The notes beneath the pieces were generated by a model. It was not told where the DNA came from, made no database searches, and was given only the letters and a program-made list of their open reading frames with translations. This document shows, one piece after another, positions 21,590 through 37,620 of a stretch of 57,345 bases of DNA. The DNA is from an uncultured Acidobacterium sp. (GTDB lineage Bacteria > Acidobacteriota > Vicinamibacteria > Vicinamibacterales > UBA2999): positions 1 through 57,345 of the forward strand of contig CAYHCX010000017.1 of the NCBI GenBank assembly GCA_964355095.1. The letters are read 5' to 3'. Each line of letters starts with the position of its first letter. Positions within the stretch are counted from its first letter, which is position 1. Position numbers and translations under genes: made by a program.

Positions 21590-22665
21590 TGTAGTGTCTC
21601 CAACGCTTCTTTACATTTGGCGACTTTAGCCAAAATCTGCTCCACGGACGCAGTCCACTTGAAGATTTTGGGATTCTGGTTGTGATTGTCCAAATATTCC
21701 TGGATCGCGGCGATCAACTCCGGCACGTTCTTGAAGACACCACGGCGGATGCGTTTGTCGGTGATGTCGCGAAACCAGCGCTCCACCATGTTCACCCACG
21801 AACTCGACGTCGGGATGAAGTGCAGATGAAACCGCGGATGTCGCTTGAGCCAGGATGTCACGCGCGGATGCTTGTGGGTCGCGTAGTTGTCCGCGATGAT
21901 GTGCAGATCCAGTGCGGACGGGGTCTCGACATCGATCGTGTTGAGGAAGCGGATGAATTCCTGATGCCGATGGCGTGGCATGCACTGGCCGATCACCGTG
22001 CCATCGAGCATGCTGAGGGCCGCAAACAATGTGGTCGTGCCATTGCGCTTGTAATCGTGCGTCATCGTGCCGCAGCGGCCCTTCTTCATGGGGAGACCGG
22101 GCTGGGTGCGATCGAGAGCCTGAATTTGGCTTTTCTCGTCAATGCACAGGACCAGGGATTTGTCCGGAGGATTGAGATACAGGCCGACGACATCGTAGAG
22201 CTTGTCGACAAAGTGCTTGTCTCGACTGATCTTGAAGGTCTTGAGGAGATGGGGCTTGAGGTTATGTTGCTTCCAAATGCGTTGAACGCTGGCCGGACTG
22301 ATGCCCTGGGCTTCGGCCATCGTGCGCACGCTCCAGTGCGTCGCGGTCGGCGGCTTGGTGCGCAGCGTCGCGTCGATGACGGCACGCACTTTCCTTTCGG
22401 AGATGCTTGGCAGACGACCGGGACGTGGAGCGTCCTTTTCCAGCCCCGCAATTCGCAACGCCAGAAAACGTTCGCGCCACAGTTGCACGGTTGGCCTGGA
22501 AACGCCCACCTCCCGTGCGATGTCTTGATTGGGCACCCCGTCGCCGGCCATCGTGACGATGCGGGCACGCAGCATCAGCCGCAACGGGAAACTCCTCCCC
22601 CGTCCCCATGTTGCCAGGGTGGCCCGCTCTTCGCGGGAAAGCACGACCGGTGGTGCCGTTCTCAT
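21586..22665 (-). CDS. IS630-family DDE transposase (DD35E)
   Basis: N-terminal HTH region (NQDIAREVGVSRPTVQLWRERF). Catalytic candidates are D in LCIDEKS, D in IIADNYA and E in NMVERWF, with 35 residues between the last two. ATG 22665 is preferred over TTG 22701. The stop codon is completed by the flanking TA. Confidence 0.9.
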   Translation of the reverse strand: MRTAPPVVLSREERATLATWGRGRSFPLRLMLRARIVTMAGDGVPNQDIAREVGVSRPTVQLWRERFLALRIAGLEKDAPRPGRLPSISERKVRAVIDATLRTKPPTATHWSVRTMAEAQGISPASVQRIWKQHNLKPHLLKTFKISRDKHFVDKLYDVVGLYLNPPDKSLVLCIDEKSQIQALDRTQPGLPMKKGRCGTMTHDYKRNGTTTLFAALSMLDGTVIGQCMPRHRHQEFIRFLNTIDVETPSALDLHIIADNYATHKHPRVTSWLKRHPRFHLHFIPTSSSWVNMVERWFRDITDKRIRRGVFKNVPELIAAIQEYLDNHNQNPKIFKWTASVEQILAKVAKCKEALETLH

Positions 22666-22722
22666 GCCGAAACCATCGCTCTCGACGGTGCCGTGTGTCA
22701 AGTTATTTATGACACACTACAC
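21589..22722 (-). mobile_element. IS630-family insertion sequence, 1134 bp, apparently intact
   Basis: Terminal inverted repeats GTGTAGTGTCTC (21589-21600) and GACACACTACAC (22711-22722) are 11/12 complementary. The element is flanked by TA (21587-21588 and 22723-22724), and both junctions read CTAG. It has a single transposase ORF. Confidence 0.9.
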
Positions 22723-22748: not shown

Positions 22749-24314
22749 GTGAAGTCCGACCCAATGCCAAAACCGATCGAGAAGATCCTGCTCGTACAGC
22801 CGGCGGCGTTTTGCGATAACAACCGCTCCAACATCGCGCCGATGCTGGGCTTGGGCATTGCGTATATCGGGGCCGTCCTGGAGAAGGCCGGCTATGAGGT
22901 GTCAGTCCTCGACGCTTTTCTTGAAGGATTTCAGGTCGAACAGCGAGTCACCCCGCAGATGCTCCGGGTCGGCATGCCGATCGAGGAGATCAAGGCGTAC
23001 ATCGCGGCGGCCAAGCCCGACGTCGTGGGCATCACCAGCATGTTTACGTCGCAGCGCAAGAACATGCACGAGATCGCCCGCGTCACCAAGGAGGCGTTAC
23101 CGAACTGCCGCGTCATCGTCGGCGGCGCGCATCCGACCGCGGCGCCGGAATCGGTGGGCGCGGATGTCAATATCGATGCCGTCGTGCTGGCTGAAGGCGA
23201 CAATTCGGTCGTGCCGGTCATCGAGGCCTTCGACCGCGGCATTTCGCTCGATGGACTCGACGGCGTCGCGTTCCGCAAGGCCGACGGCACCGTGCAGGTC
23301 AACCAGAAGACCCAACAGATCGCGGACCTAGACGAGCTGCCGTTCCCGGCGCGGCACCTGTTCCCGATGGAGAAGTACTTCGCCACGAAGATGAAGCACT
23401 CGGGGACCTTCGAGGGCCGGGCACTCTCGATGATCACGTCGCGCGGCTGCCAGTACTACTGCAACTTCTGCACGGCCTTCAAGGTGTTCACGCGCAAGCC
23501 GCGCATGCGGTCGATAGCGAGCATCATGGCCGAAGTCGAGCAGATGATCGCCACTTACGGTATCGACGAAGTGTGGTTCGAAGACGATCAGTTCATCGCC
23601 CGTCAGCGCCACACCATCGACATGCTCGATGCGCTCGCGAAGTACAAGCTCAAGTTCGACACGCCCAACGGCATTTCGTCGTGGTTGCTGAACGAGCAGG
23701 TGATCTCGAAGATGAAGGAGGCGGGGTGTTATCGGGTAAACCTCGCCCTGGAATCGGGCAATCAGGAAGTCCTCGACAAGATCATTCACAAGCCGGTCAA
23801 GCTGAAGGACGTGCCGCGGCTCGTCAAGCTGATTCGCAAGGAGAAAGTCGACATCGTCACCTTCCTGGTGGTCGGCAATATTTCCAAGGATCGCGTCGAG
23901 ACAATCAAGGAAATCCGCGACAGCTTCCGCTTCTGCCGCAAGATCAAGACGATTCCTCATGTCTCGTACCTGCAGGCATATCCCGGCTCCGAGACGTTGG
24001 AAGTGGCGGAGGAAAAAGGCTATCTCGTGCCTGGGTTCGACTGGGACCAGCTGATGAGCATCAAGCAGCAGCTGACCACGCCCGAGTGGACCCACGAGGA
24101 ACTGGCGCGCGTCGTCGAAGAAGAGCGGGTGAAGACGCATGCCTGGATCTGGGTCACCAGTCCGCGTAAGTTCCTGGCGACCGTCTGGAGCTACCTGCGG
24201 GCAGAGCCGACCAAGACGCCCCTGCTCGGGGTCAAGAAGCTTGTCAAGCTGGTGAAAGACCTGATCGTCACCACCATACGCCCGAACCGTCCGACGGCGG
24301 TGGCTCGGTCCTAG
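22749..24314 (+). CDS. B12-binding-domain radical SAM enzyme (class B radical SAM, methylase-like)
   Basis: N-terminal Rossmann-like B12-binding region (ILLVQP...GLGIAYIGAVLEKAGYEVSVLDAF...VVGITSM...VIVGGAHPT). CX3CX2C = CQYYCNFC at 23448-23471. Start is GTG 22749 or ATG 22764. Confidence 0.85.
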   Translation: MKSDPMPKPIEKILLVQPAAFCDNNRSNIAPMLGLGIAYIGAVLEKAGYEVSVLDAFLEGFQVEQRVTPQMLRVGMPIEEIKAYIAAAKPDVVGITSMFTSQRKNMHEIARVTKEALPNCRVIVGGAHPTAAPESVGADVNIDAVVLAEGDNSVVPVIEAFDRGISLDGLDGVAFRKADGTVQVNQKTQQIADLDELPFPARHLFPMEKYFATKMKHSGTFEGRALSMITSRGCQYYCNFCTAFKVFTRKPRMRSIASIMAEVEQMIATYGIDEVWFEDDQFIARQRHTIDMLDALAKYKLKFDTPNGISSWLLNEQVISKMKEAGCYRVNLALESGNQEVLDKIIHKPVKLKDVPRLVKLIRKEKVDIVTFLVVGNISKDRVETIKEIRDSFRFCRKIKTIPHVSYLQAYPGSETLEVAEEKGYLVPGFDWDQLMSIKQQLTTPEWTHEELARVVEEERVKTHAWIWVTSPRKFLATVWSYLRAEPTKTPLLGVKKLVKLVKDLIVTTIRPNRPTAVARS

Positions 24315-24447
24315 CGTTGAGAGATCCCGGTGCCGCTGGCCGCGCGCGGCGGCCCGCGGGTGCTTCCCTGTTTCACACCATCCCAGATCGTCATGCCCTG
24401 GCCGGTGCGCGCCGTGCCCGGGCGCCGCTGACTGCCATGGAGATTCG

Positions 24448-25713
24448 ATGACTATGAAGACGAGAGGTGAATACCGGACGCTGACGGCCTGCCGCTTGTG
24501 CGGGGGCTCGGACCTGACCACGTTCATCGACTTCGGAGACTTTCCGCTCGCCGGTGCCTTTCTCAAGCCGAAACAGATTCCGGACGAACGCGTCTACCCG
24601 ATGGGCATGCAGTTTTGTCTGAGTTGCACCTGCGTCCAGGTCGACACGGTGATTCCGGTCGAAGTGCTGTTCAAGCACTACTTCTATTTTTCGTCGGCGA
24701 TCCAGACCCTGCGCGATCACTTCGGCCAGTTCGCCGACGAGATGCTGGCGAGGTTCGTCAAGCCGGGCGACCTGATGGTCGAGATTGGCTGCAACGACGG
24801 CGTGTTCCTGCGCCACCTGGCGGCGCGCGGCGTGCGCAACGTCGGCGTCGATCCGGCGGAGAACGTCGTGGCCACGATTAACGATCCGGGCGTGGTCGCC
24901 ATCACGGACTGTTTCGGGACGCGGCCCGCGGACAAGATTGTCGCCGAACATGGCCGCGCCGACGCGGTCGTCTCGAGCTTCTCGTTCGCACACATCGACG
25001 ATATGCACGAAGTGATGCGTGGTGTCGACCGCGTGCTGGGCGAGCGCGGCGTCTTCGTATTCGAAATCTATTATCTCGGCGTCGTGCTCGAAGAAATGCA
25101 ATACGACATGATGTATCACGAGCACATGAGCTACTACACGCTTGCGTGCCTCGAGCGGTTTCTCGGCCAATACGGCCTCGAAGTGTTCGAAGTCAAGAAA
25201 ATCTCGTTGCGATCGGGAACGCTTCGGTTCTATGCGCAACGCTCGGCGCACCGGCCTCATCCGATCTCGCCGACGGTGCAGCAGCAGCGTGACGAAGAGA
25301 ACAGCAAGGGATTGCTCGACGCCGCCACCTATCAAGGCTACGGTGCGCGCGTGCAAAAGACGAAGGACGATCTGATGTCGCTGCTCGACCGGCTCAAGGC
25401 AGAGGGCAAGTCGATCATCGGCTACGGCGCCTCGGGGCGAGCGACCACGATCATGAACTACTGTGGCATCGATGGCCGATATCTTGACTTTGTCGTCGAC
25501 GACGCGCCGGCCAAGCACGGGTTCCTGACGCCGGGTACCCACGTGCCGATCAAGCCGTGGACCGATGTCGAGGCGTTGGAGGCCAAGCCGGACTACGCGT
25601 TGGTCTTCGCGTGGCCGTTCATCGAGGAAGTGCGCAAGCGCCGCCGGGCCTATCTCGAGCAGGGAGGCAAGTTCATCGTGCCGCTGCCCGAGGTGCGCGT
25701 GCTCAGCGAATGA
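24448..25713 (+). CDS. NDP-hexose C-methyltransferase (TylCIII-type: Zn-binding N-domain + class I MT + C-methyltransferase C-domain)
   Basis: CRLCGGSDL...FPLAGAFL...CLSCTCVQV, FKHYFYFSS, MVEIGCNDG, HEHMSYYT, and C-terminal IGYGASGRATT. Confidence 0.85.
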   Translation: MTMKTRGEYRTLTACRLCGGSDLTTFIDFGDFPLAGAFLKPKQIPDERVYPMGMQFCLSCTCVQVDTVIPVEVLFKHYFYFSSAIQTLRDHFGQFADEMLARFVKPGDLMVEIGCNDGVFLRHLAARGVRNVGVDPAENVVATINDPGVVAITDCFGTRPADKIVAEHGRADAVVSSFSFAHIDDMHEVMRGVDRVLGERGVFVFEIYYLGVVLEEMQYDMMYHEHMSYYTLACLERFLGQYGLEVFEVKKISLRSGTLRFYAQRSAHRPHPISPTVQQQRDEENSKGLLDAATYQGYGARVQKTKDDLMSLLDRLKAEGKSIIGYGASGRATTIMNYCGIDGRYLDFVVDDAPAKHGFLTPGTHVPIKPWTDVEALEAKPDYALVFAWPFIEEVRKRRRAYLEQGGKFIVPLPEVRVLSE

Positions 25714-26618
25714 CCGCTCTAACCCCTCACATTTTGATCGTCGGGGGCACGGGGATGCTGGGCGGCATGCTCCAGCGCTACTTGTCAGCGCGGTGCGCCG
25801 CCCCGATTGTCGCGACTCAGCGGCGTGATCGCAGCGCTCCCGGCTTCCTCGATGCGGCCGATCGGAATACTGACCTGGAACGTCTGATTGGCGAAGAGTG
25901 CCAGGCCCAGTTCGTCATCAATGCGGTCGGCGTGCTCAAGGCGAATATCAACGAATCGGATCCGGCGTCGGTCGACAATGCCGTCGAGGTCAACAGTCGC
26001 TTTCCGCACCGGCTGGCGGTGGCTGCGAGTGCCTGTGGTGCGCGGATGGTGCACGTGTCCACCGACGCCGTCTTCGCCGGCGCTCCGCGCCGCCTCGATG
26101 AGGATGCCGCCGCCGATCCCGAGGATGTGTACGGCCGCAGCAAGCTGGACGGAGAGGTCCAGGGCGCGCGCGCGATCACGCTGCGCTGTTCGATCGTCGG
26201 TCCCGATCCGGCGAACGGCCGGAGTCTCTATGAGTGGCTGCGCCGCCAACCGGCGGGCGGCACCGTCAGCGGTTTTGTCGATCAGCAGTGGAACGGCGTG
26301 ACGACGCTGCAGGTGGCGAAGCTGTGCGAGGCGCTGCAGGCCCCGGCGACTTTCGACGCGGTCGCGGCGGCCTCGCCGCTGCGCCACTACTGTCCGAACC
26401 CGGCTCTCAGCAAGTACGAGTTGTTGTGCCAGCTGCGCGATGCGCTCGGACTCGACGTCGCTGTCGAGCCTTCGGAGTCTGGCGCGGCGGTCGATCGCAC
26501 GTTGACGTCTCGATGGACCGACCTGAATTCCCTGACGTTGACAGCCGGCTGGAGCCGGCTGCTCAGTGAGCTCGTCGATGCCGACCCGAGGGGTCGCGTC
26601 GCCCAGCCTCCCCAGTAA
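25710..26618 (+). CDS. RmlD-like NDP-4-keto-sugar reductase (SDR)
   Basis: ATGA overlap with the upstream gene. ILIVGGTGMLGG, VINAVGV...N, VHVSTDAVFAG, YGRSKLDGE. Confidence 0.75.
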   Translation: MTALTPHILIVGGTGMLGGMLQRYLSARCAAPIVATQRRDRSAPGFLDAADRNTDLERLIGEECQAQFVINAVGVLKANINESDPASVDNAVEVNSRFPHRLAVAASACGARMVHVSTDAVFAGAPRRLDEDAAADPEDVYGRSKLDGEVQGARAITLRCSIVGPDPANGRSLYEWLRRQPAGGTVSGFVDQQWNGVTTLQVAKLCEALQAPATFDAVAAASPLRHYCPNPALSKYELLCQLRDALGLDVAVEPSESGAAVDRTLTSRWTDLNSLTLTAGWSRLLSELVDADPRGRVAQPPQ

Positions 26619-26620
26619 CC

Positions 26621-27856
26621 GTGCCTCAAGGAGATGACGTGGCGAAACGTAAGCCCAAGCTCGCGATTGTACTCGGTATCCGTCCGGATGTGATCCGGGC
26701 CAGCCTGTTCCTCAACATGATTCGCGCGGACAAGCGCGTGGACGTCACCTTTATCTGGTCCGGCCAGCACTACTCCGACAATTTGAAGGATGTGTTCTTC
26801 CGCGAGCTCGGCGTCAAACCGCCGGAGGTCGAGCTGGATGCCAGGGGTTCCACGGACGCCGAGGTCAGCTCGGCGATCATCAGCAAGCTGTACCCGGTCC
26901 TCGAGAAGCTGCAGCCCGACGCCGCAATGTTCCTCGGCGATACCAATACCGTCATCTCCTCGCTGGCAGCGGCGCAGCTGAACATCCCGATTGTGCATTT
27001 CGAGGGATGCATGCGGTCGTACGACTGGCGCATGCCCGAGGAAAAGTATCGCGGCGTGATCGATCATCTCGCCGACGTCATCTATACCTACTACCCCGAA
27101 TACAAGAAGCAGGGCGTTGACGAAGGCATCAACCCCAGCGCAATGGTCGTCGTGACCAACCCGATTGTCGATGTGCTCCAGACCCACTATTACGACAAGC
27201 GTGAGTTCTTCGAACAGCTCGCGTCGGATGAGTTCTTTTCGTCGCGCGGCCTGGAGCGTGGCAAGTTCTTCGTCATGACCTGCCATCGCCGCGAGAACGT
27301 GCACATCAAGAGCTCGTTCAAGGCGATCCTGGATCTCGTCGCCGCTGCGCCGCACCCGGTGTATTTCCCGGCCAGCTATCGGACGCAGAAGGTCCTTCAG
27401 GAATACGGATTCAAGCTGCCGAAGAACGTGATCATGACCGATCCGGTCGGCTACCACGAGTTCCTGGTGTTGTTGACCCAGGGCGCTGGCGCCATCACCG
27501 ATTCCGGCACGGTGGTCGAGGAGACGTGCGTCCTCGGTGTGCCTTCGCTGCAGATGCGGCGCGCCAGCGAGCGTCCCCAAGTGTACGATGTCGGCTCGAG
27601 CGTGAAGTTCGATCCGACCAGGCCGGAGAAGTACCCGGCGGCGCGCGTGTTTGCCAAGATGGAGGTGCTGCGCGGTCGCAAGTGGAAGCACCGGCTGGGT
27701 GACGGCAAAGCGTCGGAGCGTATCTACAAAGACATGGTCAAGCGGCTGCTGACCGGCAAAGTGTACAACCACCGTCGTGAGGACTATCACCTTGATACCA
27801 GGCGCTCGTATCGGGAAGACGGCGTGCCCGTCCGTCAGGCGGCGAGGCGGCGGTGA
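26621..27856 (+). CDS. UDP-N-acetylglucosamine 2-epimerase family protein (Epimerase_2, WecB-like)
   Basis: KLAIVLGIRPDVIRAS..., SGQHYS, FLGDTNTVISSLAAAQLNIPIVHFEGCMRS, TDSGTVVEE. Confidence 0.85.
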   Translation: MPQGDDVAKRKPKLAIVLGIRPDVIRASLFLNMIRADKRVDVTFIWSGQHYSDNLKDVFFRELGVKPPEVELDARGSTDAEVSSAIISKLYPVLEKLQPDAAMFLGDTNTVISSLAAAQLNIPIVHFEGCMRSYDWRMPEEKYRGVIDHLADVIYTYYPEYKKQGVDEGINPSAMVVVTNPIVDVLQTHYYDKREFFEQLASDEFFSSRGLERGKFFVMTCHRRENVHIKSSFKAILDLVAAAPHPVYFPASYRTQKVLQEYGFKLPKNVIMTDPVGYHEFLVLLTQGAGAITDSGTVVEETCVLGVPSLQMRRASERPQVYDVGSSVKFDPTRPEKYPAARVFAKMEVLRGRKWKHRLGDGKASERIYKDMVKRLLTGKVYNHRREDYHLDTRRSYREDGVPVRQAARRR

Positions 27857-28755
27857 CGGCGGAGTCGCGCGACGGCTTCACGTGCGTGGCGTGCGGAACG
27901 GCCCTGATCCAGCCGCTGCGGAAAGGCGCGTTCAGCTACTACGTGTGCGGCTCGTGCGGCACGGCGTCGATGCGGCCTCTGCCCGGCGATCAGGAGATCG
28001 TCGACCACTACCGGCGCAAGTTCGAATCGGGCAACTACGAGTTGCTGCGCCGCTTCGCGTCGGAGTACCAGGTGGTCTACCGAGGCTTCCTCGAGTCGGT
28101 GCGCCGTGCGTTCGCAGAAGACGGGCGACCGTTACGGGGGCTGAGCGTGCTCGATGTCGGCTGCTTCACCGGCGAGTTCTTGGTGCTCGCGGCCGACGCC
28201 GGTTGCGACGTCCGCGGATTCGAGCTGCAGGATGAAGCCGTGGCGATTGCGCAGCAGCGGCTGGGTGAGCGGGTCGCGAAAACCGACGTGCACGATCGCG
28301 GCATCGACGGCCAGCACTACGACGCGATTTGCCTGTTTGGACTGATCGAGCATGTGCGCGATCCGGTCGGTCTATTGGTCCGCTGCCGATCGCTCTTGCG
28401 GCCGGGTGGGCGGTTGTTCTTGCAGACGCCGAATCGCGGTTCGCTGTTGGCAGGGCTGCTCGGCAAGTACTGGCCGCCCTATTCGCCGGTTGAGCATCTG
28501 CATTTGTTCAGCCAGTCGGCCCTGGAGAAGGTACTTCAGGACAACGGCTATTCAGTGACGCTCGTCTACGGCCACTGGAAACGCCTGCCGGTCGAGTACG
28601 TGTTCGAGATGATGCGGCACTACGGGCCCGAGATCAGGGCGCTGATTCGTCCGCTCTACGCGTTGAGTCCCAAGTGGCTGCGCGCGTCCGCGGCGCCGTT
28701 CTACATCGGCGAGATGTTCGTAGTGGCGACGAGGACCGACCCACCGGCCGCATGA
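27853..28755 (+). CDS. Class I SAM-dependent methyltransferase with N-terminal 4-Cys zinc ribbon
   Basis: GTGA overlap with the upstream gene. CVACG...CGSCG, VLDVGCFTGEF, ICLFGLIEHVRDP. Confidence 0.8.
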   Translation: MTAESRDGFTCVACGTALIQPLRKGAFSYYVCGSCGTASMRPLPGDQEIVDHYRRKFESGNYELLRRFASEYQVVYRGFLESVRRAFAEDGRPLRGLSVLDVGCFTGEFLVLAADAGCDVRGFELQDEAVAIAQQRLGERVAKTDVHDRGIDGQHYDAICLFGLIEHVRDPVGLLVRCRSLLRPGGRLFLQTPNRGSLLAGLLGKYWPPYSPVEHLHLFSQSALEKVLQDNGYSVTLVYGHWKRLPVEYVFEMMRHYGPEIRALIRPLYALSPKWLRASAAPFYIGEMFVVATRTDPPAA

Positions 28756-30338
28756 GCCCTGACATGCGCGAGTTGGCCGTGCTTTACGCCACAGGCGTTT
28801 CGGGCACGGTTGCGCTGAGTGTCGCGGGGTTCTTCGTGATGCGCGGCGCTGGCGCGCAACGGACCGTGCGGCACGGCGCGGCGCTGTTTGCGCTGGTCCT
28901 GGCCGTGGCCTACTTCGGCGCCATGCTCTGGATGGGCGCCGGCAAAGCCGCGGCCCTCAATCATTACGCCGATCGCGCCACCCATCTCGAGATCATGACG
29001 CGGAGTCTCCGCGGCCTGGGACTGACCAGCCCGATGTCGGCGGAGTTCTTCACGGGGTCGCACTGGTTCGCCGCGCATTTGACGCCGATTATCTACGTCG
29101 CCTACCTGCCAGGGTTCGCACTGGCACCGTTCCCGATCACGCTGCATGTGCTCGAGACCGTGTATTTGATGCTGGCCGCCGTTCCGATTGGATGGTTTGC
29201 CGCCCGCCGGCTCGGCGCCGCGTCCGGGTGGCTGTTTGGGGCGGCGTATCTCGCATACCCCACCGTGCACTACATCAACCTCTACGGCCTCGCCTACCTA
29301 GAGCTGAGCATTCCCATTCTTGCGTGGGCACTGTTCGCGCTCGAGTCGAGGCGGGACGGCTGGTTCGTGCTGTGTGCGCTGCTGTTGCTCACCACCCGCG
29401 AGGATGCGTCGCTCGTCGCGGCGGCGCTTGGCGTCTATGCGATGTTTCGCGGCCACCGTCGCATCGGTGCCGTCGTGACCGTCGCCAGCGCAGTGTACTT
29501 CGTGGTCGCGCTCAAGGTGATCATCCCGGCATTCCGTTCGGACCAGTCGCTCGTCTACATGAACAACTACCGCGCCTGGGGGAACAGCGTCGGTGACATC
29601 GCGCAAAACGTGGTACTGCATCCCTTCTCGACGATCCGCCAGCTGTTGAGCGTGCCGCGCGTTGGCAATGTGGTCATGTACCTGCTGCCCGTCGCCGGCC
29701 TGGCGCTGCTAGATCCGCTGGGACTGTTCGTCGCAGCACCTAACATCGCGACCACGTTCCTGAGCGGGTCGGTCACCAACTACAGCTTTACGCTCTACTA
29801 CCTGGCGCCGACGATTCCCGTGGTCTTTTTCGCCGCGGTTCGCGGCGCGGATGCCCTGCGGCGCCGGCTGGAGGTCGACGGCCTCCGCCCCGCCGTCGCC
29901 GTGCTCGTTGCCGCGCTGTCGGCCAACGTCTTCTTCGGGCCGTCGCCGGCATCGCTGCAATTCTGGAACGAGGGCTATCAGGTCGGGCAGTTTCACACCA
30001 CCAGCTATTACCGCAGCGAATATGTCCCGACGGCGGCTACGGTGGCGGCGCGCGACATTGCGGCGCGCGTGCCCGCCGGCGCGCAGATCTCCGCAGAGCA
30101 ACATCTGCTGCCCATCCTCTACGACCGCGCCCGGATGCTGGTGTTTCCGACGATGGACGCGCAGATCGATCATGTGATGATTGACCGGGCCAAGCGCGCG
30201 AAGAGTGGCTGGGCGGCCACGTTCATGGCGTTCCGGATGAACCCCGAGCAGTACTACGCGGCCATCGAAGGCAGCAGCGATTGGGAGCTGGTGGCGGAGA
30301 ACGGTGGCGCCAGGCTGTTTCGAAGGACGGGTCGGTAA
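28752..30338 (+). CDS. Polytopic membrane protein, tentatively DUF2079/GT-C-like
   Basis: ATGA overlap with the upstream gene. About 12 helices, then a roughly 150-aa C-terminal non-hydrophobic domain. Family assignment is by general architecture only. Confidence 0.6.
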   Translation: MSPDMRELAVLYATGVSGTVALSVAGFFVMRGAGAQRTVRHGAALFALVLAVAYFGAMLWMGAGKAAALNHYADRATHLEIMTRSLRGLGLTSPMSAEFFTGSHWFAAHLTPIIYVAYLPGFALAPFPITLHVLETVYLMLAAVPIGWFAARRLGAASGWLFGAAYLAYPTVHYINLYGLAYLELSIPILAWALFALESRRDGWFVLCALLLLTTREDASLVAAALGVYAMFRGHRRIGAVVTVASAVYFVVALKVIIPAFRSDQSLVYMNNYRAWGNSVGDIAQNVVLHPFSTIRQLLSVPRVGNVVMYLLPVAGLALLDPLGLFVAAPNIATTFLSGSVTNYSFTLYYLAPTIPVVFFAAVRGADALRRRLEVDGLRPAVAVLVAALSANVFFGPSPASLQFWNEGYQVGQFHTTSYYRSEYVPTAATVAARDIAARVPAGAQISAEQHLLPILYDRARMLVFPTMDAQIDHVMIDRAKRAKSGWAATFMAFRMNPEQYYAAIEGSSDWELVAENGGARLFRRTGR

Positions 30339-30342
30339 GCAG

Positions 30343-32250
30343 ATGTGCGGAATTGCGGGATTCCTCGGCGCGCCGCGGCCTGACGAAGCCACGGTCACAG
30401 CATCGTTGGCCGCGGCCCTGGCGCACCGTGGCCCGGACGACCAAGGGATCCAGGGCATCGACGTCACCGGTGGGCGTCGCGCCATGTTCATCCATCGGCG
30501 TCTCGCTATCATCGACCTGTCTCCGCTGGGCAAGCAGCCGATGCACGATCCGGCGTCGGGCAATTGGATCACGTTCAACGGCGAAATTTATAACTTCGAA
30601 AGCGTGCGTGCGGATCTACAGCACGGTGAGGTGTTTCGATCGAAGAGCGATACCGAGGTGATGCTGCGCTTGTATGCGCGCGACGGCGTCGGCATGCTCG
30701 ACCGCATCCAGGGGATGTTTGCGTTCGCCTTGTGGGACGCGCAGCGCCAGCGAATGCTGCTCGCGGTCGATCCTCTGGGGATCAAACCGTTGTACTGGGC
30801 ACACGGGCCGGATGGTGCGTTCTGTTTCGCCTCCGAGGTCCAGGCACTGCTCGGCGCCAGACTCGTGGAGCGGCGTCTCGATCCGACAGGCATGGCCGGC
30901 TACCTGTCGTATGGCGCCGTGCAGGGGCCAGCGACGATGGTCGCCGGCGTGCGTGCGCTTCAAGCGGGCAGTTACCTGTATGTCGATGCCGACGGCACGG
31001 TCGATGGGCCTCGTCACTACTGGCGGCCCGCTTTCTGTTCGGCACCGCTCGACGGCCGCGCCCGAACCGAGGTGGTCGACGAGCTGTCACACCTGCTTCG
31101 GTCGGTGACGCGCGAGCACTTGATCGCCGACGTGCCCGTCGCCGTGTTTCTGAGCGGAGGCATTGACTCGACGGCGCTGGCCTCGTTTGCGGCGCCGGCG
31201 TCGCCTGGATTGAAGTCGTTCTCGGTCAGCTTTACGGAAGGTGAGTTTTCGGAAGCCGAGTACTCGCAGGCCACAGCGCGGCGGCTCGCCCTCGATCATC
31301 AGGAGCTGGTCCTGACGCCAGACGAACTACTACGCCGGCTGCCGGACGCGCTGGCCGCGGCCGATCAGCCTTCCATCGACGGCACCAACGTCTTCGTGCT
31401 CTCTCGCATGGTGCGCGAGGCCGGTGTCAAAGTTGCGCTCTCCGGTCAGGGCGGCGACGAAGTGTTTGGCGGCTACTCGACGTTCCGCGACGTCAGTAAC
31501 GGCTTGGCCTGGCGACGGCGGCTTGCGGTGGTTCCCGACTGGAGCTGGCGCGCCAGCGCGCGGTTGTGGAACGCGGCGCGTGCGGGATCGCGCGGACTGC
31601 CCGACAAGATCGGCCAGTTTCTGGGGAACGGCGGCGGCGTGATCGAAACGTGCCTGCTGCTGCGACAATTGCTGCCGCCGAGCACGGTGCGGGAGCTGTT
31701 TCATTCCTATGCCGGCTCTGACTTGGGGATTCCTCCCGAGCTTGCGGATGAGTTCGAGCGCGGCACGGCCAATCTCGATCCGATCAACGCGGTGTCGTTC
31801 CTTGAGTTGCGCGGCTACCTTGGACAGACGTTGCTCAGGGACGGCGACGTCATGAGCATGGCGCACGGACTCGAAGTGCGCGTGCCGTATCTCGATCGGC
31901 GGTTGGTGGACTTCGTGGCGGCGCTGCCGGGGTCGCTCAAGATGGAGCGCAACCGCCCCAAGCCGCTGCTCCTGGATGCGGCGCGAGGCGGCGTTGATCC
32001 GCACATCTGGGCCAGGCCGAAGCAGGGCTTCACGTTCCCCTGGGAACATTGGCTGAGGGGACCGCTCAAGCCGCTCGGCGACGCGGCCTTCGCCGACCGG
32101 GCGACGTTCGAGGGGATCGGGATCGACGCGACGAAGGCCGCTGAGTTGTGGGCTGGGTTCCAGGCCCGCACCCCCGGCATCACGTGGCCGCGCGTCTGGG
32201 CCCTGATCGTGCTGCAGGACTGGACGACCCGCTGGGGAGTTGCCGTCTAG
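30343..32250 (+). CDS. Asparagine synthase (glutamine-hydrolysing)-family amidotransferase, AsnB/WbpS-like
   Basis: N-terminal MCGIAGF (Cys2 nucleophile of class II GATase), NGEIYN, and PP-loop VFLSGGIDS. Confidence 0.88.
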   Translation: MCGIAGFLGAPRPDEATVTASLAAALAHRGPDDQGIQGIDVTGGRRAMFIHRRLAIIDLSPLGKQPMHDPASGNWITFNGEIYNFESVRADLQHGEVFRSKSDTEVMLRLYARDGVGMLDRIQGMFAFALWDAQRQRMLLAVDPLGIKPLYWAHGPDGAFCFASEVQALLGARLVERRLDPTGMAGYLSYGAVQGPATMVAGVRALQAGSYLYVDADGTVDGPRHYWRPAFCSAPLDGRARTEVVDELSHLLRSVTREHLIADVPVAVFLSGGIDSTALASFAAPASPGLKSFSVSFTEGEFSEAEYSQATARRLALDHQELVLTPDELLRRLPDALAAADQPSIDGTNVFVLSRMVREAGVKVALSGQGGDEVFGGYSTFRDVSNGLAWRRRLAVVPDWSWRASARLWNAARAGSRGLPDKIGQFLGNGGGVIETCLLLRQLLPPSTVRELFHSYAGSDLGIPPELADEFERGTANLDPINAVSFLELRGYLGQTLLRDGDVMSMAHGLEVRVPYLDRRLVDFVAALPGSLKMERNRPKPLLLDAARGGVDPHIWARPKQGFTFPWEHWLRGPLKPLGDAAFADRATFEGIGIDATKAAELWAGFQARTPGITWPRVWALIVLQDWTTRWGVAV

Positions 32251-33126
32251 GTGAGTACCGCCTGTGAACTTTGCGGCAGCCAGTCGTTCAGCCGATTGTT
32301 CGAGATGCGCGGCTACGCGATCGGCCGCTGTTCGGCCTGCCGTCACGTCTATGTTCCCTTCGCCGGATCGGACGCGGACCTGCAACGGGCCTATGAACAG
32401 CAGTTCTTTCGCGATGGCGCGTACCACGACTACCTCGCCGATCGCGAGATCGCGGCGAAGAACTTTCGGCGATTCGCCGAAATTGTCCGGCGGCACAGTC
32501 CGAGGGGTCGGCTGCTCGAGGTCGGCTGCGCGTACGGGTTCTTCCTCGACATCGCGCGCGACTGGTGGACGGTGACCGGCATCGACATCCACGCCCCCGG
32601 CATCACGCACGCCCGCGACCGGTTGGGCGCTGACGCGGTCCATGGCGACTTCCTGGATTTCAACGCGCCGGATGCCTCCTTCGACGCGGTGGTGATGTGG
32701 GACACCATCGAGCATTTGCGCCGGCCGTCCGCGTACATCGCCAAGATTGCCGCCACCCTGAAGCCGGGCGGCATCGTCGCGCTGACGACCGGGGACGTCG
32801 GCAGCCTGGTTGCGCGGCTGCGCGGCCGGCGTTGGCGGCTGTACGATCCGCCGTTCCATCTGCAATACTTCACGCGGGAGACCATGACACGATTGCTCGC
32901 GCAACACGGACTACAGATCGTCGAGCTCCGAACGGTCGGCTACGATCGCAGTCTGCATTTCATGCTGCACCGGCTGTTCCGCTATGGGCGCGGCCCGGCG
33001 TCGACGCGCGTGTTCGATCTGTCGTCACGACTCGTCGGCGCGGCGTCGTCGTTCTATCTGAACGTCTTCGACATCATGATGGTCGTGGCCCGCAAGACCG
33101 GCGATCCGTCGGCGGTGCGGTTCTGA
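32251..33126 (+). CDS. Class I SAM-dependent methyltransferase with N-terminal 4-Cys zinc ribbon (paralog of 27853)
   Basis: CELCGS...CSACRHVY, LLEVGCAYGFF, VVMWDTIEHLRRP. Confidence 0.8.
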   Translation: MSTACELCGSQSFSRLFEMRGYAIGRCSACRHVYVPFAGSDADLQRAYEQQFFRDGAYHDYLADREIAAKNFRRFAEIVRRHSPRGRLLEVGCAYGFFLDIARDWWTVTGIDIHAPGITHARDRLGADAVHGDFLDFNAPDASFDAVVMWDTIEHLRRPSAYIAKIAATLKPGGIVALTTGDVGSLVARLRGRRWRLYDPPFHLQYFTRETMTRLLAQHGLQIVELRTVGYDRSLHFMLHRLFRYGRGPASTRVFDLSSRLVGAASSFYLNVFDIMMVVARKTGDPSAVRF

Positions 33127-33161
33127 CCGCGCCGCCTCGCGAGGGGCTGTCGGCGTATTCG

Positions 33162-33854
33162 GTGGTGATTCCCATCCACAACGAAGCGCCGATTCTGGAG
33201 CATTGCCTGACCGGCATCATCGAGGGCCTGGGCGGTCTCGATCGCCCGTTCGAGATCGTGCTCTGCGAGAACGGCAGCTCGGATGACACCCTCGTCGCGG
33301 CCCGCGCGTTGGCGGCGGGCGACCAACGGTTGCGCGTGCTGACCAGCCCCGTCGCCGACTACGGCGAGGCGCTGAGGTTCGGCATCACCAACAGTCACCA
33401 CGACCAGGTGGTGATCTTCAACATTGACTATTGGAGCGCGACGTTCGTGCAGCGAGCGCTCGACGAACTGCGCGCCGCGGACATGGTGATCGGCTCGAAG
33501 CGGCTGCGCGGCAGCCTTGACGAACGGCCGTTGATGCGCCGCGCCATCACGGCGAGCTTCAACGGCTTTCTCCGCGTCTGCTTCGGCTTCCGCGGGACCG
33601 ACACCCATGGCCTGAAGGCGTTCTCCCGGGACGCGGTCCTGCCGATCGTTGAACGCTGCACGACCGACGGGTGGATCTTCGACACCGAGCTGGTGCTGCT
33701 CGCCGAGCGGCGAGGCTTGCGGATTGTCGAGGTGCCGGTGACGCTCGCCGAAATCCGAGCCCCCGGCTATCGGTCCTTGATTGCCCGCGTGCCGCGCACG
33801 CTGAAGGCCATTGATCGGATGCGCCAAAATCTGGCTCGCACGCCCCGTCAATGA
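33162..33854 (+). CDS. GT2-family glycosyltransferase (start codon uncertain)
   Basis: SVVIPIHNEAPILEHCL, VLCENGSSDDT, FNIDYW. There is no ATG/GTG/TTG in frame between 32697 and 33162. The alternative is CTG 33123, which overlaps the upstream stop as CTGA. Confidence 0.7.
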   Translation: MVIPIHNEAPILEHCLTGIIEGLGGLDRPFEIVLCENGSSDDTLVAARALAAGDQRLRVLTSPVADYGEALRFGITNSHHDQVVIFNIDYWSATFVQRALDELRAADMVIGSKRLRGSLDERPLMRRAITASFNGFLRVCFGFRGTDTHGLKAFSRDAVLPIVERCTTDGWIFDTELVLLAERRGLRIVEVPVTLAEIRAPGYRSLIARVPRTLKAIDRMRQNLARTPRQ

Positions 33855-33891
33855 CGGCGGGGCCAGGCGGTAGAGCAGTAGAATTGTTACC

Positions 33892-35562
33892 TTGAGATCC
33901 ACCTCGACGGCGTCCGACCGCAGCGCGAAGGTCTGCCTGGTGCGGCCGCCGACCATCCTGCCTGTTGCCTCGGTCATGACCCAACAGGGCGTGCCGCCGC
34001 TCGGCGTCGCGTACCTCGCGGCCATGCTCAAGGCCCATGGTCATACGGTCACGACCGTTGATGCGTTCGGCGAGGCCATTGACCGATTTACGAGGATCGA
34101 CGGGACGCCGCTCCTCATCAACGGCCTGACCGCGGCCGACATTGCCGCCAGAATCCCCGGGGACGTCGACATCATCGGCGTCTCGTGCATGTACTCCAAC
34201 GAGTGGGTCTATGCCCGCGTCGTGATCCAGGCGATCGCGCTTCGCTTTCCCGACGTGCCGATCATCGGTGGCGGCGAACACTTTACGGCCGATCCTGAGT
34301 ATGCGCTGCGCACGGCGCCGCAACTGCGGGCGGTGGTATTGGGCGAAGGCGAAGAGACGCTGGTTGATCTTGTCGATGCGTTGATGACCGGCCGAGCGCT
34401 GGCGACCGTCGCGGGGCTCGCGTATCTGGAACAGGGCCGCCTCGTGCAGTGCGCGGATCGCAAGCGGCTCCGCGTCATCGACGAGATTCCCGTGGCGTCG
34501 TGGGACGAGTTGCCGCTCGAGACCTATCTCGCTGCGGGATTCGGCATGAGCTCGCTCGGCGGCCGCAACATGCCGATGCTGGCGTCGCGCGGCTGTCCGT
34601 ATCAATGCACCTTCTGCTCGAATCCGCAGATGTGGACGCAACGGTGGATTGCCCGCGATCCCGAGCAGGTCATCGCCGAGATCAAGGACTGGATCGCGCG
34701 TTTTCGCGTCACCCACATCGAGTTTTATGACCTGACGGCGATTGTGCGCCGCGACTGGATCATCACGTTCGCCAACCGCCTGATCGAAGAGCAGCTCGGG
34801 GTCACGTGGTCGCTGCCGTCAGGCACCCGCAGCGAGGCGCTCGACGGCGAGGTCGTGGCGCTGCTCAAATGCAGCGGCTGCCATTCGATGACCTACGCAC
34901 CTGAATCGGGCTCGCCCGCGACGCTCAAGCGCATCAAGAAAATGGTCGACCTCCCGAAGATGTTGCGCTCGATGCGCAGCGCGGTTCGGGCAGGCATCCT
35001 GCTCAAGGCCAACATGATCGTCGGCTTTCCCGGCCAAACGCAGGGCGAGGTCGCCGAGTCGTTCCGCTTCATGGTGCGCATGGCGTGGGCGGGCGTTCAC
35101 GATGTGGCCGTCTTTCCATTCGTCCCGTATCCAGGCAGCCAGCTGTTCACCGGCCTGATCGAGGCCGGCAGGATTCGCAAGGATGCGGCCGCGTACGACG
35201 CGTTCCTCGCGGGGAACATCTACAACGAAGTCTCCGGCATGCGTTCGTGGTCCGATCACATCTCCGATTCGCAAATCAAGATGCTGACCGTCGGCGGGAT
35301 AGCCTGGTTCTATTCGTGGCAGTTCCTGTTCAGGCCGCACCGTCTTGCCGGGACCTTGCTTCGGCTCATTCAGCAGCGTCCGGTGACGATGCTTGAGAAG
35401 ACGGTGGCGGTGGTGCTGCAGAACTTCGTGACCCGGCAGCGCAAGCTGCACGTCAAAGCCGTGGACTCGTTGCCCGAACGCGTCGATTTCACCCGTATTC
35501 ACGAGGTCATCCGCGGTCCGAAGATCGCGGTCGCGGCCGACCGCGGTGCGGGAACGCACTAA
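33892..35562 (+). CDS. B12-binding-domain radical SAM enzyme, paralog of 22749
   Basis: VCLVRPP...PLGVAYLAAMLKAHGHTVTTVDAF...IIGVSCM...IIGGGEH. CX3CX2C = CPYQCTFC at 34594-34617. TTG start. Confidence 0.85.
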   Translation: MRSTSTASDRSAKVCLVRPPTILPVASVMTQQGVPPLGVAYLAAMLKAHGHTVTTVDAFGEAIDRFTRIDGTPLLINGLTAADIAARIPGDVDIIGVSCMYSNEWVYARVVIQAIALRFPDVPIIGGGEHFTADPEYALRTAPQLRAVVLGEGEETLVDLVDALMTGRALATVAGLAYLEQGRLVQCADRKRLRVIDEIPVASWDELPLETYLAAGFGMSSLGGRNMPMLASRGCPYQCTFCSNPQMWTQRWIARDPEQVIAEIKDWIARFRVTHIEFYDLTAIVRRDWIITFANRLIEEQLGVTWSLPSGTRSEALDGEVVALLKCSGCHSMTYAPESGSPATLKRIKKMVDLPKMLRSMRSAVRAGILLKANMIVGFPGQTQGEVAESFRFMVRMAWAGVHDVAVFPFVPYPGSQLFTGLIEAGRIRKDAAAYDAFLAGNIYNEVSGMRSWSDHISDSQIKMLTVGGIAWFYSWQFLFRPHRLAGTLLRLIQQRPVTMLEKTVAVVLQNFVTRQRKLHVKAVDSLPERVDFTRIHEVIRGPKIAVAADRGAGTH

Positions 35563-35583: not shown

Positions 35584-37620
35584 ATGGACGAGCTCCGTCC
35601 GTTGCGAATCATTCTCACCAGTATCGTGATCGCACCTGAGTTACGCCGTTCACTCCTCTTCACGTACGCCGTCGTCGTGATGGTGATGGCTGCCCTCTAC
35701 GTGATGTTCTGGCATTATCCGATCGTGAGTTACGGTGACGACCTGATTCTCTACAATCCGCGCGTCTTCGACGGGCCGGCCTCGCAGTTCTTCTCGCAGC
35801 ACCTGTTCGTCAACGGGCGGTTGTCGTCGAACGTGACGCACCTGCTGGTGGCCCTGTGGGTCCGGGTCATGGACTGGACGCCGCTGGACTTTCCGTGGCT
35901 GTCGACGCGTCTGCTGTCGTTGGGCCTCGTCACGCTCAGCGCGGTCAATTTCTTGTTCGGGTGGGCCAGTCGCATTGGCGAGCGCGGATGGCGCCCTTGC
36001 GTACTGGCCGTCGGTTTGATCGCGGTCGGCTATACCGCCCATCCCTACGTCATCACGTCGCTGTACGGCTACACCGCGTTCATGTTCGTCCATACCCTGC
36101 CGCTGTTCCTGGCGTCGGTACTCTTCCTGGCTTCGTCGCCGCCGGATGCGAGCCGGGTGTGGGGTGTGACAGGAGCGCTGCTGTTCCTGTACGTGTCGCT
36201 CACGAGCGAGCAAACCATCACCCTGCTGCCGGTGCTGGCGATTTGGGCGGCGATCGACCCGTCTATGGTCGCTCGCAACGGCTGGCGAAGTGCGGTTCGC
36301 CGTGGTGCGGCTGTGACACTGTTGTTCCTGATCTCGGCGGCGGTCTATTTTTCCGTGCCGTCCCAGCGGGCGCGGCTCACCATCGTCGGAGCCGGCGGCG
36401 AACAGTTCGATCTCAAGCGATGGCTAACGCTGGGACATCAGCCGGTGGGGGAACTGCTCGGCGAGATCGCGCTGCCTCCGTGGGTCGGCACGCTGTCGGT
36501 GGCCATTGCTGCGGCGCTGGCCGCGCGCGTCCTGTGGCACGTCTTCAGCCTCCGCGGTCGCGCGTGGCACCAGCGAGCCCTTGCCGGGTATTGGGCCGTC
36601 GGTTTCTACCTGACGTTTCTCGCCAGCTGCATTCATTACGTGATGACACCGTACAACCCGCCGGAGGCGGCGGTGTTACCGGTGTTCTTCTTGCTTCTGG
36701 CCGCCTTCGCCGCGGTCTATTCGGTGTCCGGTCCGCTCGCGTCGCTGCTGGAAACGTCGAAGCCTGCACGGTTGGCCGGCGCTTCGCTGGCGGCCGCCGG
36801 AGTGGTGGCGATTGGTCTCATCAACGTGCCGGACAGCATCAGTCACCTTGGCCGCGAAATCGGAAAGGGCAGCGGCCGCTCGGGAACCTACACCGCGTTG
36901 CTTGCCGGAATTCGCGGCGACGCGTCGACGCGCCTGCACTTGCAATGGTGCGCTCCCTATTGGGACTCAGTCGGCGGAATTGGCTCACTGCTGGATTGGG
37001 CGAACGCGACACAGCCGGCAACATTCGAGAGAATATTCGCAGACGGTACATGGATGCCGCCCGGATGGATGACCGCGACCACCCTCGTCGGATTTGAAGC
37101 CATTCCATGCAGCGTCGCACTGCCGCCGTTCTCGAAGGCGGCGCGCGCGGGGGAGCCGCTGGAACTGCTGCGATCGGCGTATCACGTCGCGGAAACAGAC
37201 GGCAAGACTCACGGCGCATTTTGGGCGGACTATGGGTTGTACAGCGACTTCCGTTCCTGTTCGATAGAGGTCGACTTCAACCCGCATCCCGAGGTGAGCC
37301 CCGATCTCAAGGCTCATCTCGCCGGTGACGTCGAGATTCGCGAACAGGATGGGCACATCCGCGCGTCATGGAAGATCCGGTCGATGACGCCGAACGGCGA
37401 GGGCATCGGCTTCGGCGTTGCGGTGGTCACGCCGGAAGGGCAGGCGGTTGAGCCGGCTGCCGCGTCGCTGCCGGACTCGGGGACCGCGTTCGTCGTGCGT
37501 CCGGCCGCATGGCCAGCGTTGCTGCGTCTTCGCATTGAGCCGTTCACGGCCACCTATGACGCGCTGCACGGCATCAATTTCACCACCATGCTGAAGCCGG
37601 AGATCCGCTGCCGTCCGTGA
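35584..37620 (+). CDS. Large polytopic membrane protein with a roughly 230-aa C-terminal soluble domain; function unknown (GT-C-like architecture)
   Basis: 678-aa ORF with about 12 helices in the first 430 aa. No family motif was recognised. Confidence 0.6.
   Translation: MDELRPLRIILTSIVIAPELRRSLLFTYAVVVMVMAALYVMFWHYPIVSYGDDLILYNPRVFDGPASQFFSQHLFVNGRLSSNVTHLLVALWVRVMDWTPLDFPWLSTRLLSLGLVTLSAVNFLFGWASRIGERGWRPCVLAVGLIAVGYTAHPYVITSLYGYTAFMFVHTLPLFLASVLFLASSPPDASRVWGVTGALLFLYVSLTSEQTITLLPVLAIWAAIDPSMVARNGWRSAVRRGAAVTLLFLISAAVYFSVPSQRARLTIVGAGGEQFDLKRWLTLGHQPVGELLGEIALPPWVGTLSVAIAAALAARVLWHVFSLRGRAWHQRALAGYWAVGFYLTFLASCIHYVMTPYNPPEAAVLPVFFLLLAAFAAVYSVSGPLASLLETSKPARLAGASLAAAGVVAIGLINVPDSISHLGREIGKGSGRSGTYTALLAGIRGDASTRLHLQWCAPYWDSVGGIGSLLDWANATQPATFERIFADGTWMPPGWMTATTLVGFEAIPCSVALPPFSKAARAGEPLELLRSAYHVAETDGKTHGAFWADYGLYSDFRSCSIEVDFNPHPEVSPDLKAHLAGDVEIREQDGHIRASWKIRSMTPNGEGIGFGVAVVTPEGQAVEPAAASLPDSGTAFVVRPAAWPALLRLRIEPFTATYDALHGINFTTMLKPEIRCRP

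Follow-up and report, generated by a model that had tools for sequence, protein, structure and literature searches.

Two families of B12-domain radical SAM enzymes encoded among cell-surface polysaccharide genes of an uncultured acidobacterium

The 57,345-nucleotide contig CAYHCX010000017.1 of an uncultured Acidobacterium sp. (assembly GCA_964355095.1), referred to at its full length as the window, codes almost entirely for glycan assembly and carries on its forward strand two genes for radical S-adenosylmethionine (SAM) enzymes of class B, that is, with a B12-binding domain. These genes, RS1 (22764–24314, 516 amino acids) and RS2 (33892–35562, 556 amino acids), belong each to an uncharacterised family of its own. 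The two families are distinct and phylogenetically widespread and travel with cell-surface polysaccharide genes, that of RS2 specifically with GtrB- and GT-C-type enzymes. We consider it probable, at about 55%, that RS1 and RS2 are functional enzymes that act at the cytoplasmic face of the membrane on a sugar unit destined for a cell-surface polysaccharide and tailor it, most likely by C-methylation. We present this as a well-supported lead rather than a discovery.

The two radical SAM genes and their neighbours

The longest open reading frame (ORF) at RS1 runs from a GTG at 22749 to 24314, and the start is likely to be the ATG at 22764, which gives the 516 amino acids of the public call. RS2 must begin at the TTG at 33892 and not at the ATG at 33976 of the public 528-amino-acid call, because the conserved first β-strand of the protein (KVCLVRPP), modelled with a predicted local distance difference test score (pLDDT) of ~95, lies upstream of that ATG. 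Third-position G+C content is 0.85 in RS1 and 0.83 in RS2, and each protein has more than 100 full-length homologues at ~40–75% identity, which marks both as intact, conserved genes; orthologues of either are found at 48–75% identity, and the best named matches of RS2 come from Acidobacteriota and Planctomycetota. An earlier reading of this DNA from its letters alone (the sequence-only reading) had described two paralogous B12-binding radical SAM enzymes. Both ORFs are indeed intact and carry the domains in question, but the word paralogous overstates a distant relationship of 28% identity over 403 amino acids between members of separate orthologue families.

Both proteins score well above the Pfam cut-offs for the B12-binding domain (PF02310: RS1 78.3 bits, RS2 69.9 bits, cut-off 32.1 bits) and the radical SAM domain (PF04055: 63.1 and 64.9 bits, cut-off 29.5 bits). 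The CX3CX2C motif for the [4Fe-4S] cluster and SAM lies inside the PF04055 domain, as in the radical SAM superfamily at large, and reads CQYYCNFC in RS1 (23448–23471) and CPYQCTFC in RS2 (34594–34617), both on the forward strand; recomputed, these coordinates are exactly those of the sequence-only reading. The three cysteines are invariant in family alignments of 17 RS1 and 21 RS2 homologues, and the cluster cysteines are joined by GGAHPT / GGEHxT as invariant features across the two families. An N-terminal Rossmann-type B12-binding domain ahead of the radical SAM core gives both proteins the architecture of class B. In AlphaFold2 models built on the family alignments (mean pLDDT 87.4 for RS1 and 84.7 for RS2, predicted template modelling score 0.86 for each), this domain is a β-α Rossmann fold with pLDDT above 85, and the B12 domain is thus intact at the level of both domain and fold. 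Foldseek searches of the PDB are led for both proteins by TsrM, AprD4, OxsB, MgmA, TokK and CysS (E 1e-16 to 1e-23), with query TM-scores of 0.55–0.69 against B12-domain radical SAM structures and lower scores for MiaB and RimO. The DxHxxG motif is absent from RS1 and RS2, as is expected of class B radical SAM enzymes, a class without a universal cobalamin-ligand motif; cobalamin use by the two proteins is a putative trait taken from their class.

Relatives of known function are remote. The best sequence match in the PDB is AprD4 (6fd2; E 2e-13 for RS1 and 5e-16 for RS2), limited to the radical SAM core (residues ~185–421) at 53–61 bits. Among curated NCBIfam models, the Sden_1168 P-methyltransferase family (NF038361; RS1 257.3 bits, RS2 183.3 bits, cut-off 575) is matched almost from end to end, B12 domain included, and three to four times more strongly than the AprD4 core. 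HpnJ (121 and 116.6 bits, cut-off 577.6) and BchE (110.9 and 136.9 bits, cut-off 481) rank second and third, ahead of HpnR (92.5 and 47.1 bits, cut-off 650), the P-methyltransferase PhpK (TIGR04479; 91.8 and 89 bits, cut-off 600) and AprD4 (NF033070; 85 and 64 bits, core domain only, cut-off 500). The hopanoid and pigment enzymes that the sequence-only reading had named as possible orthologues (HpnJ, HpnR, BchE) are therefore far from their cut-offs, and genes of those pathways are not found nearby.

These matches bear on whether one or both of RS1 and RS2 might act on a glycan sugar without methylating it: by ring contraction or carbocycle formation, as in HpnJ- and OxsB-like enzymes, by dehydration of a 1,2-diol leading to deoxygenation (AprD4-like, with a neighbouring short-chain dehydrogenase/reductase (SDR) as reductase), by epimerisation or by oxidation. 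The ranks of HpnJ and BchE favour such chemistry, as does the position of AprD4 as best sequence match in the PDB and one of the top structural matches. An RmlD-like reductase is encoded within two genes after RS1, and RS1 together with it recalls the pairing of AprD4 with AprD3. The cluster, moreover, already holds nine conventional SAM methyltransferases, two TylC3-type C-methyltransferases and seven further class I enzymes. Yet the AprD4 match covers the core only and is outscored by the full-length P-methyltransferase match, no score approaches the HpnJ, BchE or AprD4 cut-offs, and among characterised enzymes that keep the B12 domain intact, methyltransferases are in the majority. We regard a non-methylating reaction on a sugar as a real but minority possibility, and C-methylation remains our preferred reading.

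RS1 opens a run of closely spaced genes on one strand (intergenic distances of −157 to +133 nt) that extends to a family 4 glycosyltransferase (GT4) ending at 38801. RS1 is followed on the forward strand by a TylC3-type nucleoside diphosphate (NDP)-sugar C-methyltransferase (24448–25713; Methyltransf_13, _23 and _14), an RmlD-like NDP-sugar reductase (25557–26618, domain from ~25728; RmlD_sub_bind 82.6 bits, TIGR01214 77 bits and under cut-off) and a WecB-like protein of the UDP-GlcNAc 2-epimerase type (26621–27856; Epimerase_2 232 bits, TIGR00236 189 bits against a cut-off of 210), so that Pfam agrees with the order of functions assigned earlier. Next come, on the same strand, a class I SAM methyltransferase (27853–28755; Pfam), a polytopic membrane protein with ~8–9 transmembrane (TM) segments and a DUF2079 domain (28674–30338; PF09852, 159.5 bits), which we take to be a member of the Pfam GT-C clan, and a glutamine amidotransferase of the asparagine-synthase (AsnB) type (30304–32250; TIGR01536, 410 bits, above cut-off). 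The group around RS2, also on the forward strand, consists of a class I methyltransferase whose relatives travel with RS2-type genes (32251–33126), a short family 2 glycosyltransferase (GT2; 33138–33854, ~238 amino acids, Glycos_transf_2), RS2 itself, a 678-amino-acid membrane protein (35584–37620) and the GT4 (37617–38801), which overlaps the stop of the 678-amino-acid gene by 4 nt. The sequence-only reading had likewise placed RS2 between the GT2 and the membrane protein.

The amidotransferase raises the question whether a non-sugar substituent is methylated instead, either an N-acyl or amino-acid amide introduced by the AsnB-like enzyme or the GNAT protein of the window, or an O-methyl group lengthened to ethyl or isopropyl in the manner of CysS and TokK. 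The AsnB-like gene lies between RS1 and RS2, and others occur near relatives of RS1 or RS2 in loci L002/L098 and L017; the structural matches include CysS and TokK, both iterative methyl-extending enzymes, and O-methyltransferases are numerous in the cluster. This support is purely circumstantial, however: the AsnB association occurs in a minority of contexts, and a conserved acyl-carrier or amino-acid ligase partner is not present in them. We judge a non-sugar substituent improbable and return to the sugar itself as the expected substrate.

The 678-amino-acid protein is a near-orphan with ~10 predicted TM helices and a soluble C-terminus of ~260 amino acids. It has no Pfam or NCBIfam match, and a word-indexed search of 5.8 billion proteins returned only the protein itself, while an exhaustive HMMER search among 1.84 billion representatives gave 13 remote relatives (E 1e-11 to 6e-4), three of which match DUF6056 weakly. 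A DD pair is conserved in this family just past TM1; GT-C enzymes carry such a pair after the first TM helix. Its architecture and position suggest a GT-C-like protein.

Two further GT2 genes on the forward strand precede RS1. The first (20089–20820) resembles polyprenyl-phosphate glycosyltransferases, with its best PDB matches to DPMS (5mlz, E 2.7e-15), ArnC (E 9e-13) and GtrB (sll0501). The second (20807–21589) has its best PDB matches in DPMS (E 1.7e-14), GtrB and ArnC, can be aligned over 245 amino acids with the GtrB homologue of locus L109 (see below), and was the direct neighbour of RS1 before an insertion sequence (IS) entered. DPMS, GtrB and ArnC load a sugar onto polyprenyl phosphate. 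For both radical SAM genes in the window, the order is DPMS/GtrB-like GT2 (only weakly so before RS2), radical SAM gene, tailoring genes and large membrane protein, the last being the DUF2079 protein (28674–30338) for RS1 and the 678-amino-acid protein (35584–37620) for RS2.

The IS, missing from the sequence-only reading, is an IS630-family element on the reverse strand (21589–22722; transposase ORF 21586–22701 with Pfam DDE_3 and helix-turn-helix matches). Read directly from the sequence, it has terminal inverted repeats of 12–15 nt and a TA target duplication at 21587–8 and 22723–4. Its point of insertion is precisely the stop codon of the second GT2, to which it runs in the opposite orientation; without it, that GT2 would stop 39 nt before the RS1 start. 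The element probably uncouples RS1 and the genes downstream from an upstream promoter. Soil metagenome-assembled genomes (MAGs) widely carry relatives of its transposase (up to 78% identity), the nearest of which come from Nitrospirota and Gemmatimonadota.

Genomic association of the two families

The RS1 family is rare. A scan of species-representative genomes with RS1 as a single protein found nothing, and an alignment-based scan was swamped by the generic CxxxCxxC motif and returned only relatives at 25–36% identity, which were reused as RS2-like and control loci. A DNA pattern for the more specific motif DTPNG[VI]S.W yielded nine true orthologues among 18 matches, hence ~9 orthologues among 185,579 species representatives. 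RS1 orthologues (48–70% identity) lie in polysaccharide loci in 11 of 11 contexts from at least six phyla, namely in a MAG (L001), Sulfuricella (L002/L098 and L102), Desulfobacter (L004), Elusimicrobia (L106), Leptospirales (L107), Gallionella (L093 and L099), a deltaproteobacterium (L094) and Nitrospinaceae (L089). Their neighbours are NDP-sugar enzymes, glycosyltransferases, Wzx/Wzy proteins and methyltransferases, and the family accompanies NDP-deoxy- and amino-sugar pathways in Wzx/Wzy-type loci. The closest orthologue (L001, 70% identity) shares with the window 12 orthologous and syntenic genes: SDR, C-methyltransferase, RmlC, CmcI-like methyltransferase, Wzx, RS1, GT2, Wzy, methyltransferase, SDR, FdtA-like protein and methyltransferase. 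The beta- and deltaproteobacterial and leptospiral loci have another conserved block, in which a CMP-sugar-type cytidylyltransferase and a soluble protein of ~610 amino acids precede RS1, and a 4,6-dehydratase, a ~150-amino-acid protein, a nucleotidyltransferase and a DegT aminotransferase follow it.

The soluble protein of this second block (~610–640 amino acids) has no Pfam family; its gene immediately precedes RS1 orthologues and in most cases follows that of a CTP_transf_3 cytidylyltransferase. Its sub-threshold matches, which are glycosyltransferase-like, are to DUF6716, Capsule_synth and Epimerase_2 and fall near residues 460–540. It is found in Gallionella (L093 4895–6736, L099 4608–6434), Sulfuricella (L102 438–2276), Leptospirales (L107 8039–9865), the deltaproteobacterium (L094 2446–4380) and Desulfobacter (L004 7107–8999), and is absent from the window and from L001.

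For RS2, 30 RS2-like loci (34–65% identity) were available for neighbourhood counts. A full-length GtrB-like gene is present in 8 of these, compared with 5 of 55 loci of other B12 radical SAM types, and recognised GT-C families (YfhO, PMT_2, GT87) are found no more than two genes away in eight. Of 90 near neighbours, 14 are large polytopic membrane proteins, as are 7 of 174 distal genes of the same loci (odds ratio 4.4, Fisher p = 0.0017); the same comparison at loci of other B12 radical SAM types gives a ratio of 1.7 (p = 0.18). Individual loci illustrate the association. In L108, the RS2 orthologue has a full-length GtrB homologue beside it (E 6.5e-65 to sll0501) and is flanked by YfhO, whose stop abuts the RS2 start. 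The order in L109 is GtrB homologue (E 1.5e-67), orthologous methyltransferase, GT87, YfhO-like protein and RS2, and a Phycisphaerales locus (L061) repeats the order of the window, with a methyltransferase, a GtrB-like GT2, the RS2-like gene and a 666-amino-acid protein with 10 TM helices. The methyltransferases adjoining the RS2 relatives are 44% (L108), 39% (L109) and 34% (L061) identical to that at 32251–33126. RS2 appears to belong to a recurring module of class I methyltransferase, GtrB/DPMS-like GT2, radical SAM enzyme and large polytopic GT-C-like membrane protein.

In these glycan loci, B12 radical SAM genes are often paired or adjacent to other radical SAM genes, as at L007 (10001–13507), L107 (6390–11569) and L113 (6614–9170). 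In L007, a Hydrogenedentes MAG, tandem RS2-type genes are found among GT2s, and in L107 (Leptospirales) RS1 is accompanied by another B12 radical SAM gene and two SPASM radical SAM genes; radical SAM proteins account for 9 of 88 near neighbours of RS2-like genes. In five loci (L010, L029, L038, L041 and L071), a full-length GtrB-like GT2 adjoins a B12 radical SAM gene of other subfamilies, ~25–30% identical to RS1 and RS2, and the pairing of GtrB with B12 radical SAM enzymes may be wider than the RS2 family.

The contexts also allow the alternative to be weighed that co-location with glycan genes is incidental and that RS1 and RS2 act on a lipid, cofactor, peptide, phosphonate or phosphinate. 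Glycan islands are mosaic, that of the window carries an IS, and the closest NCBIfam model is a P-methyltransferase family; one RS2 orthologue, moreover, has no recognisable glycan genes around it (L005, discussed below). Against this stand the glycan loci in all 11 RS1 contexts and in most RS2 contexts from unrelated phyla, the translational packing of RS1 and RS2 among sugar genes, and the 57 kb of the window, in which no PEP mutase, precursor peptide, lipid, cofactor, hopanoid or pigment genes were found. We hold a non-glycan substrate to be very improbable. The comparative gene contexts support instead the sugar or lipid-linked glycan substrate that the sequence-only reading had proposed.

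Other features of the window

The window has a G+C content of ~64%, and nearly all of its genes are on the forward strand. Across its length it encodes two ABC-2 transporter pairs, a DegT aminotransferase, a GNAT protein, a GNVR chain-length protein, Wzy-like and Wzx proteins, a Bac_transf initiating transferase and sugar enzymes of the SDR, RmlC, RmlD and FdtA types; its GT2 and GT4 genes number ~13 in all. A ribosomally synthesized and post-translationally modified peptide was considered as a product and rejected: the 133-, 37- and 21-nt gaps beside RS1 and RS2 hold no plausible precursor ORF, no ORF of precursor size and plausible composition was found, and peptidase, transporter or RRE partners are lacking among the matches in the window. 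The sequence-only reading had likewise seen neither precursor nor maturation partners. A phosphonate pathway was also rejected, as the window has no PEP mutase and the NF038361 and TIGR04479 cut-offs are not reached.

A third radical SAM gene, absent from the sequence-only reading, lies directly after Wzx (47128–48363, forward strand) and resembles MiaB and RimO. Its UPF0004 N-terminal domain keeps Cys11, Cys44/47 and Cys77, the cluster motif is CSFSCSFC, a TRAM domain is absent, and all NCBIfam cut-offs are unmet (163 bits against 251). Orthologues at 65–78% identity occur in Azospirillum cavernae, A. griseum and two alphaproteobacterial MAGs, where they are syntenic with the same C-methyltransferase, RmlC, SDR, methyltransferase and CmcI-like sugar genes. 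The synteny ties a methylthiotransferase-like enzyme to a branched deoxysugar pathway.

Methylation genes are dense across 15932–49426, which holds the nine conventional methyltransferases and the three radical SAM genes. TylC3-type C-methyltransferases start at 24448 and 40797, a CmcI/rhamnosyl-O-methyltransferase-like gene at 44752, and a methyltransferase at 15932 carries a Trm112p-like zinc ribbon. The polysaccharide product is probably heavily methylated and hydrophobic. Three further sizeable ORFs have no Pfam match (8547–10898, reverse; 191–1594 and 4837–6132, forward); one of them codes for a 783-amino-acid multi-TM protein and is, like the IS630 transposase, among the few genes on the reverse strand.

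Proposed function and relation to known systems

We infer cobalamin use and methyl transfer from the enzyme class, and the substrate and its carrier from the gene context. By analogy with the class, the cluster bound by CX3CX2C would cleave SAM reductively to a 5'-deoxyadenosyl radical, which would take a hydrogen from an unactivated C–H of the sugar, and methylcobalamin in the N-terminal Rossmann domain would then hand over a methyl group. The product would be a C-methyl sugar beyond the reach of the TylC3-type C-methyltransferases and of the class I O/N-methyltransferases of the cluster. The tailoring is placed on the cytoplasmic face of the membrane because SAM-dependent chemistry cannot occur outside it. 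The module that RS2 forms with a GtrB-like GT2 and a polytopic membrane protein makes a monosaccharide loaded onto polyprenyl phosphate its most likely substrate, which would be tailored, flipped and added as a side-branch outside the membrane. RS1 would probably act on an NDP-sugar or a lipid-linked repeat unit.

Several observations weigh against this proposal. No curated NCBIfam cut-off is reached by either protein, and the nearest model, a P-methyltransferase family, is followed by two, HpnJ and BchE, that are not methyltransferases. AprD4, the best sequence match in the PDB, is a diol dehydratase that shares the fold but uses no cobalamin, so that neither binding of cobalamin nor transfer of a methyl group follows from the fold by itself. 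An Rfam scan of the window gave no match, hence no cobalamin riboswitch, and cob and btu genes are likewise missing from it. Within the RS2 group, the GT2 at 33138–33854 is only weakly GtrB/DPMS-like (best PDB matches DPMS, E 1.7e-4, and GtrB, E 2.8e-4) and has no TM helix, hhalign comparisons of the 678-amino-acid protein with YfhO and DUF2079 were negative, and no ORF of 80–260 amino acids with at least three hydrophobic segments, as expected of a small GtrA-type flippase, was found in the window; a flippase gene could be located elsewhere. The RS2 orthologue of L005 has no recognisable glycan context, being surrounded by amidohydrolases, ABC ATPases and an IS element. For RS1, the orthologues of L002 and L107 have beside them GT2s of the ordinary chain-extending kind (chondroitin-synthase/GalT1-like), so the polyprenyl-phosphate link seen in the window is not family-wide. 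RS1 loci have no full-length GtrB, and large membrane proteins are not enriched among their neighbours; a link to polyprenyl-phosphate glycosyltransferases as a trait of the whole RS1 family was accordingly ruled out.

One more specific possibility is that RS2-type enzymes form a fourth, so far unrecognised component of extracytoplasmic glycosylation of the GtrB/GT-C (CsbB-YfhO-like) type. As cobalamin-dependent enzymes they would carry out, with the partner methyltransferase, a radical C-methylation or rearrangement of the monosaccharide while it is still bound to polyprenyl phosphate, ahead of its flipping and transfer to a surface polymer. We offer this tentatively and consider it doubtful. 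If correct, envelope glycan assembly would gain its first example of a radical SAM enzyme that tailors a sugar on its lipid carrier, and environmental bacteria would have a source of C-branched sugars that are uncatalogued by glycan chemistry. More generally, C-methylation or rearrangement by RS1 and RS2 would explain branched or chain-extended sugars of O-antigens and exopolysaccharides (EPS) and tie the structure of surface glycans to the availability of cobalamin. Known reactions cover no more than a small part of the B12-domain radical SAM proteins, and the operons described here would offer defined settings with candidate substrates for a class that is hard to assign. The sequence-only reading knew of no established role for such enzymes in O-antigen or EPS assembly, and full-text literature searches returned no paper that ties cobalamin radical SAM enzymes to O-antigen, EPS, capsule or YfhO, nor one on the Shewanella denitrificans P-methyltransferase; coverage was incomplete, and this is absence of evidence only.

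Known systems resemble parts of the proposed pathway. The nearest curated family over almost the full length, Sden_1168/PhpK (NF038361, TIGR04479), consists of P-methyltransferases, whereas RS1 and RS2 remain below its cut-offs and have no phosphonate genes around them. TsrM, TokK, CysS, OxsB, MgmA and AprD4 have the same three-part fold of Rossmann domain, partial TIM barrel and helical C-terminal domain, but are only 12–20% identical to RS1 and RS2 and act on unrelated substrates (tryptophan, carbapenem, aminobenzoate, nucleotide, protein glutamine and paromamine). The three-component glycosylation systems GtrA/GtrB/GtrC, CsbB/GtcA/YfhO and ArnC/ArnT find their counterpart in RS2 relatives that adjoin a full-length GtrB homologue and GT-C proteins of the YfhO/PMT_2 type. 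The window differs from them in that its GT2s have no C-terminal TM helices, a GtrA-like flippase was not found in it and the 678-amino-acid protein is not demonstrably GT-C. We know of no three-component glycosylation system with a radical SAM enzyme among its steps. ArnD, which acts on a sugar already bound to undecaprenyl phosphate, sets a precedent for tailoring at the carrier stage. To our knowledge, sugar-acting B12-domain radical SAM enzymes come only from antibiotic or hopanoid pathways.

HpnJ, a B12-domain radical SAM enzyme of hopanoid side-chain synthesis with HpnI and HpnK, acts after the glycosyltransferase HpnI on a lipid-linked glucosamine (PMC13459092). Among curated models it ranks second for RS1 and third for RS2, but RS1 and RS2 are not its orthologues by score, hopanoid genes are not nearby, and the reaction proposed for HpnJ is a ring contraction and not a methylation. 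The gentamicin 6'-C- and 4''-C-methyltransferases GenK and GenD1 are enzymes of the same class that methylate unactivated sugar carbons beside conventional SAM methyltransferases (PMC12689558), and they are likened to RS1 and RS2 by class, not by sequence; neither they nor Fms7 appear among the PDB and NCBIfam matches. Their substrates are free pseudo-oligosaccharide antibiotics of actinomycete secondary metabolism, whereas the context of RS1 and RS2 is that of carrier-linked units of a surface polysaccharide. The enzyme class and its sugar-modifying members are thus already known; new here are the type of pathway and the repeated occurrence of RS2-type genes with those for GtrB and GT-C proteins.

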